This document shows, one piece after another, positions 2,062-16,205 of a stretch of DNA of 25,357 nt. Location of the stretch: UHGV virus genome UHGV-1360109. One strand, 5' to 3'. This DNA is from a virus. Within the stretch, counting starts at the first letter, position 1; each line of letters opens with the position of its first letter. The position numbers were made by a program, and so were the translations under genes. The notes below the pieces were generated by a model that was not told where the DNA came from, ran no database searches, and saw only the letters and a list, made by a program, of their open reading frames with translations.

Positions 2062-4260
2062 ATGGCAGAAAAAAAGATGACTGACTGGCATCGCAAGGTG
2101 CTGTGCAACTTTGATAATGCCTGGTCAGCAACGCAGGATATGCGTGAGCAGATTATTGAGGCTCAACGTTTCGTCCGGGTGTCCGGCGCACAGTGGGAAG
2201 GCAGCACAAACGCTGGTTACTCATTTGATGAAGGCAGGTTTGAGCATTACCCGCGCTTTGAACTGAATAAGATTGCCCGTGAATGTGATCGCATCATTGG
2301 CGAGTATCGACAGAATCGCATCAGCGTTAAATTCAGGCCGAAGGATGACAGGGCATCGGAAGCGTTAGCCGAAAAGATGAACGGCAAATTCCGCGCTGAT
2401 TATCAGGAAACATCCGGTGGCGAAGCGTGTGATAACGCATTTGATGATGCTGTAACGGGCGGATTCGGTTGTTTCCGCATGTGTGCTGATTACGAAGATG
2501 AAATGGATCCGAGTAACGAGCAGCGACGCATCAGCCTTCTTCCTGTTTACGACCCGGCGACATGCGTCTTCTTCGATCAGGACAGCAAGCAATATGACCG
2601 CTCTGATGCTATGTGGGCTATGGAAATGTTCTCCATGACGCCTAAAGCGTTCGAGGCTGAATACCCTGATTCCATCGCGGCAAGTCTTTCTCGTGATGAC
2701 ACTGGCACTCAATATGACTGGTCAACTCCTGATGCTATCTATGTTGGTCGCTACTACGAAGTTCGCATAGAGAAGGTGAAGCTCACAGCATGGCGTAACC
2801 CTGTTAGCGGAGAAACGGCAATCTATGATGAAGAGCAAATCAAAGATATTGTCGACGAGCTGACCGATGGTGCATTCGAACTGATTGGTGAGCGGACAGT
2901 GAAGAAACGCCGAGTTTATTGCGGTCTTCTGTCTGGCGCTGAATGGCTGGAAGAACCGAAGCGTATTCCGGGCGAACATATTCCTCTCATCCCGGTATAT
3001 GGGCGTCGTTCATTTGTTGATAATCAGGAGCGAATCGAAGGCCACGCAGCAAAAGCGATGGATGCACAGCGTCTTGAGAACCTGATGGTTTCCATGATTG
3101 CAGATAACGCTACTCAGGCTGGCGGTGATGGCATTCCTGTAGTTGATGTTGACATGATTCCTGGTCCTCTTGCCACTCATTGGGCGGAGCGCAACAAAAA
3201 GCGCCCGGCGTTCCTGCCGATGGTCAGTCTGAAAAACAAAAACGGAGATATTACTGCGCAGGCTCAGGTCAGCAGTTATACACCTCCGACACAAATGCCT
3301 CCTGCTCTTGCCGGGCTATTGCAGTACACCGGAACGGCTATTCAGAAAATTACAGGTGCGTCGCAGCTTGAGAACATGCCGAGCAACGTCGCCACCGATA
3401 CCGTTGATAGCATCTTTAACCGGATGGACACGCAGTCCTATATCTACATGGACAACATGGCTAAATCCATGCGTCGCGCTGGCGTTGTGTGGCTTTCTAT
3501 GGCGCGTGAGGTCTATGGCAGTGATACGCCGATGCGTATCGTTAATGAGGACGGCAGCGATGACGTGGCGCTGATGACTGGTGAAGTGGTTGACCGTCAG
3601 ACAGGGCAGGTTATCGCGCTTAATGACCTTTCGCAGGGCAACTATGAAGTGACTGTCGATGTCGGTCAGTCGTTCGCTACTCGCCGTGATGCAACGGTTA
3701 AGTCGTTACTTTCCATGCTGGCACTTATCCCACCAGGAACGCAGAAGCACGACCTTGTATCGTCGATGATTCTCGACAATATGGACGGCGAAGGGATGGG
3801 CGACCTTAAAGAATACAACCGCAATCAGTTGCTTCTGTCTGGCGTTATCAAGCCGAGAACGCCTGAAGAACAGCAGATGGTTGAACAGGCGAAACAACAA
3901 CAGGCCAGTCAGCCAGATCCGGCTATGGTTGCAGCGCAAGGTCAGCTTCTTGCAGGTCAGGCTGAATTGCAGAAAGCGCAGAACGAACAGGCAGCCATTC
4001 AGGTTAAAGCATTCCAGGCACAGACTGATGCTCAGGTTGCAGCGGCAAACGTTGTGAAAATCCTCGCATCTGCCGATAGCCAGCAGAAATCTGATATCCG
4101 CGAGGCTCTGAAACTGCTCGGACAGTTCCAGCAACAGCAAGGAGACAATGCCCGTGCTGATGCAGAGCTTGTCCTGAAAAGTCAGGCACAGGGTCATGCG
4201 CAGCGAATGGACATCAGCAGCATCCTGCAAAAATCAACCCAGCAACAATCACAGCAGTAA
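2062..4260 (+). CDS. portal protein (P22 gp1-like)
   Basis: 732 aa, immediately after terL; Gln/Ala-rich C-terminal tail typical of the P22 portal barrel; conserved gene order. Confidence 0.92.
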   Translation: MAEKKMTDWHRKVLCNFDNAWSATQDMREQIIEAQRFVRVSGAQWEGSTNAGYSFDEGRFEHYPRFELNKIARECDRIIGEYRQNRISVKFRPKDDRASEALAEKMNGKFRADYQETSGGEACDNAFDDAVTGGFGCFRMCADYEDEMDPSNEQRRISLLPVYDPATCVFFDQDSKQYDRSDAMWAMEMFSMTPKAFEAEYPDSIAASLSRDDTGTQYDWSTPDAIYVGRYYEVRIEKVKLTAWRNPVSGETAIYDEEQIKDIVDELTDGAFELIGERTVKKRRVYCGLLSGAEWLEEPKRIPGEHIPLIPVYGRRSFVDNQERIEGHAAKAMDAQRLENLMVSMIADNATQAGGDGIPVVDVDMIPGPLATHWAERNKKRPAFLPMVSLKNKNGDITAQAQVSSYTPPTQMPPALAGLLQYTGTAIQKITGASQLENMPSNVATDTVDSIFNRMDTQSYIYMDNMAKSMRRAGVVWLSMAREVYGSDTPMRIVNEDGSDDVALMTGEVVDRQTGQVIALNDLSQGNYEVTVDVGQSFATRRDATVKSLLSMLALIPPGTQKHDLVSSMILDNMDGEGMGDLKEYNRNQLLLSGVIKPRTPEEQQMVEQAKQQQASQPDPAMVAAQGQLLAGQAELQKAQNEQAAIQVKAFQAQTDAQVAAANVVKILASADSQQKSDIREALKLLGQFQQQQGDNARADAELVLKSQAQGHAQRMDISSILQKSTQQQSQQ

Positions 4261-13767: not shown

Positions 13768-14157
13768 TTAACATTTTCTTTTTACTTTTCCAACAAAAGC
13801 TTTGGTTGAATCCATATTCCCATAACCAGAAATGGTTTTTGACATTAAAACTGTTCCAGTAGGATGTATTACCCATGAGTCGATAACGCGTTGAGTTTCG
13901 CCATTCGCGCCGATTCCTATGATGGAGTTTTTAGACAATGCTTTGTAAGCCATGCCGCCCGCATCTGTCCCAGAATATGTGATGCTGGCATCTTCACCGC
14001 TTGTCTTAATGATGAATGTTCCACTAAAACCATCTTCTTCCGGATGGAAATTATTTCGTTCTGAATAGCTTATTCCGCGCATATCTCCAACGACCCAGCA
14101 CTCTGCTGTAGCCCCAAAAGATATGAATAAGAACATAGCAGCAAGAAATTGCTTCAC
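13768..14157 (-). CDS. small exported protein of unknown function (cargo gene)
   Basis: GTG start at 14157 preceded by a perfect TAAGGAGGT SD; N-terminus VKQFLAAMFLFISFGATA|EC is a signal peptide with an A-T-A signal-peptidase site; mature part has Cys near both ends; the longer ORF-track version (to 14373) has an implausible His/Cys-rich extension. Confidence 0.6.
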   Translation of the reverse strand: MKQFLAAMFLFISFGATAECWVVGDMRGISYSERNNFHPEEDGFSGTFIIKTSGEDASITYSGTDAGGMAYKALSKNSIIGIGANGETQRVIDSWVIHPTGTVLMSKTISGYGNMDSTKAFVGKVKRKC

Positions 14158-14187: not shown

Positions 14188-14553
14188 ATGAAAAAAGTTA
14201 ACATTGGAAACGTACCAAAGATGCTCGTTCCGCTCTTTGAGAGCGGTACAATTGTGTTTTGTAGAGACTTTCCAGAATGGCAACGCCTGCATCAAAAACT
14301 TGGTGTGGACGTGCAGGACTCGGACGCCAACGGAGCGTCTCATACAATGAGCAGCGAGAATGGTGTTTTGCATGTGATAGGCGTGTTCAATGGCAAACTA
14401 TCTACTATTGCCCATGAGTGCGCTCACATGGCATTCGATATCTGCTCAAGGGTCGGTGTTGATGTTGAACCAGGAAGAGCCAACGAGACTTACTGCTACT
14501 TAATGAGCAGGCTTGTTGAGTTCTGCGAGCGACATATCAAAAAGCCGGAGTGA
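14188..14553 (+). CDS. small putative zinc metallopeptidase (HExxH motif), family unassigned
   Basis: 121 aa from ATG 14188 (MKKVNIGNVPKMLVPLFESG...); HECAH motif in IAHECAHMAFDICSRVGVDVEPGRANE with Glu 14 and 20 residues downstream; the ORF-track start at 14149 is a TTG. Confidence 0.55.
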   Translation: MKKVNIGNVPKMLVPLFESGTIVFCRDFPEWQRLHQKLGVDVQDSDANGASHTMSSENGVLHVIGVFNGKLSTIAHECAHMAFDICSRVGVDVEPGRANETYCYLMSRLVEFCERHIKKPE

Positions 14554-14566
14554 CCCGGCTTGATTA

Positions 14567-14746
14567 TTACTTTTTGCTGTCTGGAGTTCGCTTATCCAAT
14601 ACCCAGCCATGACCTGGCTTTGTTGTTGGTGGAAGCCTTTCGTTGTCCTTGACGGTGGCAAAATTGTCTTTCTTACCGCCGCGTGGGCCAACTTCTTGGT
14701 ATATTCCGCCGTTTTTTCCTGTGTTTTCACCTGGTTTTTTCGCCAT
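14567..14746 (-). CDS. YjzC-like small protein
   Basis: 59 aa (MAKKPGENTGKNGGIYQEVGPRGGKKDNFATVKDNERLPPTTKPGHGWVLDKRTPDSKK); the G..GIY.EVGP.GG ... LPPT ... W pattern resembles the YjzC-like family as I remember it; GAGGT RBS 7 nt upstream of ATG 14746. Confidence 0.55.
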   Translation of the reverse strand: MAKKPGENTGKNGGIYQEVGPRGGKKDNFATVKDNERLPPTTKPGHGWVLDKRTPDSKK

Positions 14747-14782
14747 GATATACCTCAACATGCACCCGTTATTGGGCGATTA

Positions 14783-14811
14783 AATATTGATCTCATTTTA
14801 TGAGTAGTCAA
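14783..14811 (-). promoter_or_regulatory. candidate sigma70 promoter for the YjzC-like gene with a dyad in the spacer
   Basis: On the minus strand: TTGACT (14811-14806), 17-bp spacer, AATATT (14788-14783); the spacer contains the palindrome CTCAT-TTT-ATGAG (14792-14804). Confidence 0.3.
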
Positions 14812-14837
14812 TATGGTCCAAAAAAGGTAAAAATTAA

Positions 14838-14859
14838 CCCACCGTCAGGTGGGTTTTTT
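14838..14859. terminator. bidirectional rho-independent terminator
   Basis: CCCACC-GTCA-GGTGGG hairpin; T-run on the plus strand (14854-14859) and a U-rich tract on the minus strand (complement of AAAAAGGTAAAAATTAA); lies about 25 nt downstream of the ClpP-like gene stop. Confidence 0.7.
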
Positions 14860-14884: not shown

Positions 14885-15421
14885 TCAAACAACCCACCAG
14901 TTTGCCTGATTGGATGCCAGCCTTGCAGTTTTTATGGAATTAATTATGCCATGCTCAAGAGCCTTGTTAGCATCCAAAATGGTCGAGTCTGCTATCAGGG
15001 ATGCCCACCTAATATGGGTTCCGATGTCGATATTGAACGTCTCAACGAAGCGATCAAGATCGTTATCGAGGCATTTCCCGTACTCTCTCAATCTGGCATG
15101 GTCGGCGGCTGGGGAGGCAAAGCACCATAATAGAGGATGTAACAGGAATCTTGATAATGGGTTTGCGAAACGTTCTGAGCCAGCCAGGAAAACGATATTA
15201 GCTATGGATTCAACATTGCTTATGTTGTGAGTTCTAACGGTAACAGGGAGTGACTTAAGAAAGTTATACGCAGTAAAGCCAGCGGCAGTTTCCCCTCCCT
15301 GACTTGATATATGGATATTTAATTCAGTTGCGCCTTGAGATAATGCGGTGAGACAGTGGTTCTGAAGTTGCCCAACAGTGGCAGTGTTAACGGGGCATAA
15401 GAAATGAATTGTGTGCAGCAT
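14885..15421 (-). CDS. ClpP/SppA-fold serine peptidase homologue (cargo gene, co-transcribed with mnt)
   Basis: 178 aa; ELNIHISSQGGETAAGFTAYNFLKSLPVTVRTHNISNVESIANIVFLAGSERFANPLSRFLLHP aligns by eye with E. coli ClpP [67 protein letters not shown]; candidate nucleophile Ser and His are in place; start ATG shares one base with the mnt stop (TAATG). Confidence 0.75.
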   Translation of the reverse strand: MLHTIHFLCPVNTATVGQLQNHCLTALSQGATELNIHISSQGGETAAGFTAYNFLKSLPVTVRTHNISNVESIANIVFLAGSERFANPLSRFLLHPLLWCFASPAADHARLREYGKCLDNDLDRFVETFNIDIGTHIRWASLIADSTILDANKALEHGIINSIKTARLASNQANWWVV

Positions 15422-15765: not shown

Positions 15766-15924
15766 ATGAAAGGAATGAGCAAAATGCCGCAGTTCAATTT
15801 GCGGTGGCCTAAAGAAGTATTGGATTTGGTGCGTAAGGTGGCGGAAGAGAACGGGCGATCTGTTAACTCTGAGATTTACAAGCGAGTGTTGGACAGCCTG
15901 AAGAGAGAGGGGATAACGGTATGA
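15766..15924 (+). CDS. arc: Arc repressor (ribbon-helix-helix)
   Basis: 52 aa from ATG 15766 (MKGMSKMPQFNLRWPKEVLDLVRKVAEENGRSVNSEIYKRVLDSLKREGITV), close to P22 Arc; GAGG RBS; the ORF-track start at 15703 is an upstream extension running through the operators. Confidence 0.92.
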   Translation: MKGMSKMPQFNLRWPKEVLDLVRKVAEENGRSVNSEIYKRVLDSLKREGITV

Positions 15925-16142
15925 GGTTTATTGAGGTTGATGAGATTGGCTATGAGAATGCACTTGGTAGAGGTAAATCTTTAGTTAACATTGATGGCAT
16001 TGAATCGATAAGGAGTGGTGAATTTACGGAGATCAGAATGATGTCAGGCGGAATCATTCCTTGCCGTGATTCAGTAGAGTCAATCAAATCAAAAATGAGT
16101 GGTCAGTGGCTTTATAGCTACAGTGACTTACAAAAACAGTGA
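15921..16142 (+). CDS. small hypothetical protein inserted between arc and ant
   Basis: 73 aa; ATG 15921 overlaps the arc stop (ATGA); no family recognised; arc and ant are adjacent in P22. Confidence 0.5.
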   Translation: MRFIEVDEIGYENALGRGKSLVNIDGIESIRSGEFTEIRMMSGGIIPCRDSVESIKSKMSGQWLYSYSDLQKQ

Positions 16143-16205
16143 AGCCCCAACTGCGGTAACAGTCAGGGCTTCGGTATCGTAAAACCACGCATAGGAATTA
16201 ACGAC

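Follow-up and report, generated by a model that had tools for sequence, protein, structure and literature searches.

The orf59a gene of P22-like phages as a probable self-contained moron unit with its own promoter, a covarying leader stem-loop and the partner gene hkcC

What is a gene for a small, apparently YjzC-like protein doing in the immunity region of a P22-like prophage, and how is it transcribed? This question is raised by a minus-strand locus of the UHGV virus genome UHGV-1360109, a stretch of 25,357 nucleotides (nt) that we refer to as a whole as the window. The open reading frame (ORF) is already known: it is orf59a of P22 (NP_059640; protein 98% identical, one residue different), which has been annotated since 2000 and has long been uncharacterized, and searches of the literature on orf59a, hkcC and YjzC found no functional study. 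One paper describes a plasmid with sieA-orf59a-mnt that excludes P22, for which sieA alone is sufficient. With moderate confidence, we suggest that orf59a of P22-like phages is a self-contained "moron" transcription unit that has its own promoter and a leader stem-loop, forms a cassette with the convergent gene hkcC, and encodes a product with a role in conflict.

A sequence-only reading of the locus had placed a candidate promoter of the form TTGACT-17-AATATT in front of the gene. Both hexamers are indeed present, and the proposal gains support from a phylogenetic footprint and from the flanking terminators. The hexamers are invariant in all 77 P22-like loci, and they recur, identical and at exactly 17-nt spacing, in prophages of Morganella, Proteus, Providencia, Xenorhabdus and Rosenbergiella, whose proteins are 76–81% identical to the window protein and whose spacers match that of the window (ACTCATAAAATGAGATC) at only 3–8 of 17 bases. 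Copies from Salmonella bongori and two Pasteurellaceae have TTGAAA instead, combined with TACATA, TAATTT or TAATAT. Because the hexamers are conserved while the spacer is scrambled, the promoter match becomes significant, and orf59a very probably has its own sigma-70 promoter.

The unit also appears to be closed on both sides (Table 1). The homologue of the upstream terminator hairpin is annotated 'tMNT' in HK620; this hairpin is conserved in P22-like loci, and an equivalent one precedes the cassette in Rosenbergiella. The downstream hairpin, common to orf59a and hkcC, is called 'bidirectional terminator tORF59A' in HK620 and is a terminator in the P22 record NC_002371 as well. Furthermore, the cassette is found without mnt, between tail genes in Rosenbergiella, beside a lysis cassette in Xenorhabdus and in a Pasteurellaceae prophage, and the order promoter-hairpin-gene-terminator-hkcC is kept in these three contexts. 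In its predicted architecture, with a promoter and terminator of its own, orf59a would thus be a self-contained moron. Morons are said, after Juhala et al. in 2000, to be autonomous promoter-gene-terminator units of lambdoid phages. Like them, orf59a is a terminator-flanked gene with a predicted sigma-70-type promoter of its own, lying between functional modules and at varied places in different phages; it differs from them in that the unit is a convergent two-gene cassette, and in that expression from the prophage is here a matter of prediction.

The second gene of this cassette is a constant partner. An HkcC-like gene converges on the YjzC-like gene within 15–44 nt in 77 of 77 P22-like loci, and the same convergence is seen in 17 further loci with Orf59a identities of 64–81%, including the tail-module, lysis-module and Pasteurellaceae contexts. 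Since the arrangement is conserved in all these loci, orf59a and hkcC move as a cassette, among unrelated positions in different phage types. The window HkcC is identical to that of HK620, and P22 has an intact hkcC (locus L001 2537–2899) that neither of the P22 records examined, NC_002371 and AB426868, annotates. Identifying the plus-strand ORF beside orf59a with P22 pid was considered and rejected: pid lies between orf25 and orf80. In 18 HkcC sequences, an HExxH motif and a further Glu about 20 residues downstream, the third ligand of the zincin motif, are invariant (H76, E77, H80 and E100). In an AlphaFold2 (AF2) model with a predicted local distance difference test score (pLDDT) of 87.5, these residues lie on two consecutive helices behind a beta-sheet, and a fold search with HkcC gave no zincin match. 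HkcC is thus a putative minimal zinc peptidase, judged from its motif.

The transcript from the predicted promoter would begin with a short stem-loop. This element begins 5–6 nt after the −10 hexamer in P22-like phages, Morganella, Proteus, Providencia, Xenorhabdus, S. bongori, two Pasteurellaceae and Psychrobacter, and it always lies 33–37 nt before the ATG. Its arms vary in a compensatory way (GCCC/GGGT, GCTC/GAGC, CTGC/GCAG, TCGC/GCGA and CTGG/CCAG), while the motif CAAT, whose C is the last stem base of the 5′ arm and whose AAT opens the loop, is kept in 10 of 11 lineages, Psychrobacter having GAAT. Across these 11 lineages, standard pairs occupy 83.6% of cells against 58.1 ± 5.2% in shuffles, and the covariation score is 0.782 against 0.284; in both cases 0 of 500 shuffles reach the observed value. 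Double-sided changes occur in all five stem pairs, and pairing drops to 31–40% when the 3′ partner is slid by 1–3 columns as a control. A 4-pair core gives similar covariation results, the slid controls spanning 31–50% over both analyses. The element thus shows the compensatory changes expected of a base-paired stem. Of the 9 lineages folded, 7 have the stem in their minimum free energy fold, and an eighth, Xenorhabdus, keeps it in a weakened form; the folding energies of whole leaders are not unusual. A search of Rfam gave no family at the orf59a leader, only the sar RNA being found in the region, and the window has a single copy of the leader motif. In prophages of S. bongori, GCTCAATAA, which is the Morganella/Proteus form of the motif, is found again immediately downstream of the YjzC-like gene's terminator (L008 about 4216–4226, L011 about 4215–4225); the leader of the gene itself uses TCGC-AATTG-GCGA.

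Taken together, these elements suggest how the unit would work. The upstream terminator would stop transcription coming from mnt and, in the window, also from a ClpP-like gene; the sigma-70 promoter would then start a transcript at the stem-loop 14778–14763, or within a base or two of it; the GAGG ribosome-binding site and the 59-codon ORF would follow, and the bidirectional terminator common to hkcC would close the unit. A conserved G occupies the first stem position, 6–7 nt downstream of the −10 hexamer, where sigma-70 transcripts usually start, so that the hairpin would be 5′-terminal, with a start predicted from the −10 hexamer. At that place its most likely effect would be to protect the mRNA from 5′-end-dependent decay. 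5′-terminal stabilizing stem-loops of Escherichia coli mRNAs, of the ompA type, were reportedly described by Emory, Bouvet and Belasco in 1992. The orf59a element resembles them in being a short stem-loop predicted at the very 5′ end and in conserving structure rather than sequence; it differs in its conserved CAAU loop motif, which a purely structural stabilizer does not need, and in that the 5′ end is predicted only. Since there is no conserved operator at the promoter, orf59a is probably expressed constitutively, including from the prophage, which would resemble its neighbors in this accessory-gene slot, such as sieA in P22.

The ORF itself is clearly more than a chance one, judged from its pattern of substitution. 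The 59-codon frame that the sequence-only reading had reported is present, and a longer 64-codon reading (ATG at 14761) is unlikely because homologues start at MAKKPG or MSKKPG and because the Shine-Dalgarno sequence, which has GGAG or GAGG counterparts at the same place in other lineages, serves the ATG at 14746. Compared with copies from Morganella, Proteus, Providencia, Xenorhabdus, S. bongori and Vibrio, nt identity is 63–74%, the nonsynonymous rate (dN) is 0.13–0.26 and the synonymous rate (dS) is saturated, which points to strong purifying selection. By phmmer, 108 database clusters match at E ≤ 1e-3, and a filter-free search of 1.8 billion representatives returned 82 homologues.

The same reading had likened the product to the YjzC-like family (PF14168), and this stands in part. 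The window protein itself reaches only 19.4 bits (E 0.0013; residues 4–49 on profile positions 8–54 of 55), below the Pfam gathering threshold of 25 bits, and NCBIfam gives no match. However, proteins positive for PF14168 are linked to it by phmmer at E values of 4e-18 to 5e-4, 19 of 28 and 18 of 24 aligned relatives match the profile (best E 4e-10 and 2.8e-15), and the more distant matches carry PF14168. All matches align over their full length and share the features PG, G.Y.E.GPRGG, T and PP(T), with P5, G6, G14, E18, G20, P21, R22, G23, T31 and P39 invariant. The AF2 model of Orf59a (pLDDT 85.8) has three beta strands, and the only significant fold match among the viral models of BFVD is a 'YjzC-like protein' (E 2e-4, query TM-score (TMq) 0.69, 49% identity), so that both the fold and the single-domain size of about 60 residues agree. 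Sequence searches of the PDB with three profiles gave nothing, and there is no solved structure for the family. Because its own Pfam score is below threshold, the membership of Orf59a in the YjzC-like superfamily is supported only indirectly, through transitive homology. The protein also matches PHROG 3202, of unknown function (phrog_3202, E 7e-31). Orf59a would be a small YjzC-like protein, strongly basic (13 K/R against 7 D/E) and all-beta, in which the GPRGG loop is invariant and an LPPT motif is present. Like Bacillus subtilis YjzC and Mycobacterium tuberculosis Rv1954A, two proteins of unknown function, it is a single domain of about 60 residues with the motifs PG..G.Y.E.GPRGG, LPPT and G.W, and the relatives that pass the threshold align with it over their full length; the gammaproteobacterial phage clade differs in having its own leader hairpin and the hkcC partner, both of which other members lack. 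Tandem YjzC-like proteins also exist, with four domains (P0180, 268 residues) or two (P0127, 110 residues), suggesting that the domain is an autonomous, repeatable unit.

The neighborhoods of bacterial homologues offer a hint of what the family does. We examined 87 loci, mostly from bacterial assemblies with one genome per species, for neighbors within 2.5 kb. An M78 peptidase matching CapP of PADLOC (capP, E 9e-60; Pfam Peptidase_M78) is found in 22 of the 87, a divergent XRE-type helix-turn-helix (HTH) gene resembling CapH in 15, and a DUF3892 gene (E 1e-16) in 13; in 10 loci the last is on the strand of the YjzC-like gene and ends 10–31 nt ahead of its start, and in two it lies just downstream. 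CapH and CapP are a repressor/peptidase pair that derepresses defense operons, including DUF3892 operons, upon DNA damage (bioRxiv 10.1101/2022.04.27.489752); the searched text of that study, by Lau et al. 2022, does not mention YjzC-like genes. Homologues at 63–75% identity are the first or second gene divergent from capH-capP, and they often lie directly behind the DUF3892 gene; in Sphingopyxis and its relatives, capH and the YjzC-like gene are immediate neighbors that point away from each other, with an intergenic region of 83–131 nt between them. The phage copy differs from these operons in having no CapH, CapP or DUF3892 gene nearby and no conserved operator: its neighbors in the window are mnt, the ClpP-like gene, hkcC and an hkcB-like gene, and none of them is an M78 or XRE gene. 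Nine of the 87 loci have IetS, IetA or both (PADLOC IetS 5.5e-223, IetA 2.5e-79). In four Phycisphaerales-type planctomycete genomes, the YjzC-like gene is on the strand of ietS and begins 24–38 nt downstream of its stop codon, behind ietA, and in five further loci IetA and/or IetS lies within 2.5 kb, in some cases in other orientations. IetAS is a defense system made up of an AAA ATPase (IetA) and an S8 protease (IetS). IetA and IetS are absent from the window, and the IetAS-linked proteins are of a more distant 'SGQYQEVGPRGG' subtype, 45–55% identical. In M. tuberculosis, Rv1954A is the first gene of the HigA-repressed higBA-secB operon (PMC3912914), again a conflict operon controlled by an HTH repressor. 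The family is repeatedly found beside proteases: M78 and S8 enzymes, the HExxH partner, and the ClpP-like gene in the window. These contexts point to a place for the YjzC-like family among conflict or stress modules, and they do not reveal its mechanism.

Several further features were seen at these loci. The palindrome TGTTTG-N5-CAAACA, a likely CapH operator, lies between the capH-like and YjzC-like genes, about 60–110 nt upstream of the YjzC-like ATG, in Sphingopyxis and other alphaproteobacteria (L024, L028, L029, L019, L015), and in Methylobacter (L042) and Sericytochromatia (L037/L038) palindromes of the form GGTTTACA...TGTAAACC bracket the −10 element instead. In Sphingopyxis (L028 4186–4392, plus strand), a small Cys/His-rich ORF (MASYYVNMNAQSNGDHEVHKSDC...CYYCSPNCHTG) overlaps and follows the YjzC-like gene and might also belong to the CapH/CapP cargo. 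In an S. bongori prophage with a YjzC-like gene (L008–L010 5878–7727), GmrSD-like and HEPN genes lie about 1.7 kb away; L011 has a higB/HTH pair in their stead, and the slot looks like a hotspot for accessory or defense genes.

Because its bacterial homologues are regulated CapH/CapP cargo, often with DUF3892, or stand directly behind IetA-IetS, and because its constant phage partner carries a zinc-peptidase motif, Orf59a would most likely take part in conflict between phage and host or between phages, as a binding protein or a modulator. It would be tempting to go further and regard YjzC-like proteins, P22 Orf59a included, as an unrecognized component of conflict systems: cargo of CapH/CapP operons (with DUF3892) responding to DNA damage, the third gene of some IetAS systems and, in P22-like and other temperate phages, part of a mobile two-gene cassette with the zinc-peptidase-like HkcC that serves defense or counter-defense, its expression being set by a leader hairpin that the GPRGG protein may bind. 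This wider idea is speculative, and we hold it only tentatively, as rather doubtful in its full extent.

A number of points weigh against the account of orf59a as a self-contained conflict moron. Taken alone, the consensus promoter scan of the 2.8-kb region is at chance level (5 sites against 4.9 expected), and the −10 hexamer is weak, matching the consensus at 4/6 positions. The stem is only 4–5 bp long and was chosen from the same sequences that were used for the test; it is weakened in Rosenbergiella and needs a one-base shift in S. bongori, and its position would suit a DNA operator just as well. In HK620, orf59a ('HkcD') is a pseudogene, codon 18 having changed from GAA to TAA to give a premature stop (locus L003 1568–1747), so that the gene is dispensable for HK620. 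The sub-threshold Pfam score of the protein also counts here, as does PADLOC, which has no match for Orf59a or HkcC (nor for the ClpP-like or hkcB-like protein), and guilt by association does not indicate the direction of the role, be it defense, anti-defense or regulation. Our literature searches found no transcript or 5′-end data for orf59a and no transcriptome of a P22-like lysogen carrying it, the BTP1 study concerning a phage for which the gene goes unmentioned. Moreover, in the P22 RefSeq record NC_002371, the terminator that follows orf59a is labeled as that of mnt, and no promoter is given for orf59a, which implies that orf59a is co-transcribed with mnt.

If that label were right, orf59a would have no promoter of its own and would be the distal gene of a transcript Pmnt-mnt-(ClpP-like)-orf59a-terminator, the hexamers being incidental. 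The chance-level scan agrees with this, as do the common strand of all these genes and the interrupted T-run (AATTTTT) of the upstream hairpin. Yet about 25 nt upstream of the −35 hexamer stands an 8-bp GC-rich terminator hairpin, tMNT to the HK620 annotators, the hexamers stay invariant while spacer and flanks diverge, and the same promoter-leader-gene unit with terminators on both sides occurs in loci without mnt, which argues against the NC_002371 reading; we regard co-transcription as quite improbable. The sequence-only reading had also seen a possible operator in the promoter spacer, where a repressor would control orf59a. The palindrome is there on the minus strand, a perfect 5-bp dyad at the classic operator position between −35 and −10, but it is neither above chance nor conserved. 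It is perfect in only 14 of 77 P22-like loci; 61 of the 77, P22 and HK620 included, have CTTAT..ATGAG (4/5), and it is one spacer base, C in the window and T in P22, that creates the perfect form. In the five other genera where the hexamers are identical, the spacers are unrelated and contain no 5-bp dyad, and perfect 5-bp dyads occur in 2.9% of all 17-mers of the window. Nor is the dyad known to resemble the annotated operator of Mnt or that of Arc. An operator in the spacer is thus barely credible: a conserved role is not supported, and the palindrome appears to be a local accident.

The dyad at 14778–14763 poses a harder problem, since it could work as a DNA operator overlapping the transcription start rather than as an RNA hairpin. 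It overlaps the predicted +1, a common position for repressors, and its central CAAT is nearly invariant (10 of 11 lineages). Also, bacterial YjzC-like genes are typically controlled by repressors, with divergent CapH-like HTH genes and palindromes over the promoter, and HigA represses the Rv1954A promoter. However, the arms covary freely among lineages and use G-T positions, which is easier to reconcile with RNA pairing than with a fixed protein-DNA code; they are only 4–6 bp long, and no gene for a DNA-binding protein travels with the cassette. We therefore consider the operator unlikely, though it deserves attention. The kept loop and covarying stem are also what would be expected of a hairpin recognized by a protein, and Orf59a, being strongly basic and having an invariant GPRGG (RGG-type) loop, could be an RNA-binding autoregulator that recognizes the CAAU-loop hairpin of its own leader. 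This idea is pure inference: bacterial members of the family keep GPRGG but have no hairpin, a structural comparison found no similarity to a known RNA-binding fold, and autoregulation seems to us very improbable. We thus retain the 5′-terminal, stabilizing hairpin of a moron with its own promoter as the preferred reading.

The sequence-only reading had considered the gene unexpected in a phage immunity region. Instead, it is the standard orf59a of P22, or HkcD of HK620, between mnt and sieA/hkcC, and as a regular resident of the immI region of P22-like phages it is not unexpected there. The whole window is a prophage like CUS-3 and phiv205-1 of E. coli K1 (96% identity over 62–63% of 25 kb), and it has a tailspike of the endosialidase type, together with mnt, arc and ant as immI genes and the sar RNA. 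The orf59a region has about 96% nt identity over 363 nt to P22 and many P22-like phages, including the promoter region, the leader and both terminators, and in HK620 the same stretch is annotated as 'may encode HkcD'. As in P22, where orf59a was placed between mnt and sieA, the window copy adjoins mnt and is convergent with hkcC; it differs in having an additional ClpP-like gene, which separates mnt from the upstream terminator, and an hkcB-like gene in place of sieA. Among 5426 complete E. coli genomes, 296 have the cassette; 'hypothetical protein' is the annotation of the genes under the match in each of the eight records listed.

Table 1. Positions of the orf59a unit and neighboring features in the window
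Feature	Position	Strand	Remarks
sar antisense RNA	16138–16204	−	Rfam RF00262, 77.7 bits
73-residue ORF	15921–16142	+	phrog_11805, 3e-53, unknown function
ClpP-like serine-protease ORF	14885–15421	−	178 residues; Pfam CLP_protease, 2e-11
Upstream intrinsic-terminator hairpin (terminator scan)	14836–14855	−	AACCCACCTGACGGTGGGTT + AATTTTT; predicted to end the mnt/ClpP-like transcript and insulate orf59a
Predicted −35 hexamer	14806–14811	−	TTGACT
Spacer palindrome	14792–14804	−	CTCAT-AAA-ATGAG
Predicted −10 hexamer	14783–14788	−	AATATT
Leader stem-loop	14763–14778	−	CGCCC-AATAAC-GGGTG; 5 nt after −10, at the predicted transcription start
Shine-Dalgarno sequence	14753–14756	−	GAGG, 6 nt before the ATG
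orf59a homologue	14567–14746	−	ATG at 14746, stop 14569–14567; 59 residues
Bidirectional terminator hairpin	14542–14561	both (scan)	common to convergent orf59a and hkcC
hkcC	14188–14553	+	121 residues; putative minimal zinc peptidase
hkcB-like ORF	13768–14118	−	116 residues; phrog_2651, 3e-60

The remaining genes around the unit also depart from the arrangement of P22. The ClpP-like ORF lies directly behind mnt, its ATG overlapping the mnt stop at 15421, and before the tMNT-like terminator, where P22 has no gene; its closest PHROG is a head maturation protease, and its 3′ end is shared with phiv205-1, E212 and others. It is unusual for an immI region to have a protease gene on the same transcript as the Mnt repressor. 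The phage has no sieA, and the hkcB-like ORF in its place has a hydrophobic, signal-like N-terminal segment (MFLFISFGATAEC...); a 201-residue ORF also listed there is an upstream extension of the same ORF. The 73-residue ORF lies between arc and ant, where P22 has no gene, and overlaps the arc stop; the sar RNA follows it.

In summary, the finding changes little by itself, since it rediscovers a gene already annotated in P22. It does, however, provide new leads for a very common prophage ORF, namely an obligate HExxH partner, a covarying leader hairpin, and homologues linked to CapH/CapP and IetAS. If these links reflect function, both this ORF and a domain that is widespread but of unknown function would enter the field of phage defense, and P22 would offer an easy genetic system in which to test their role.

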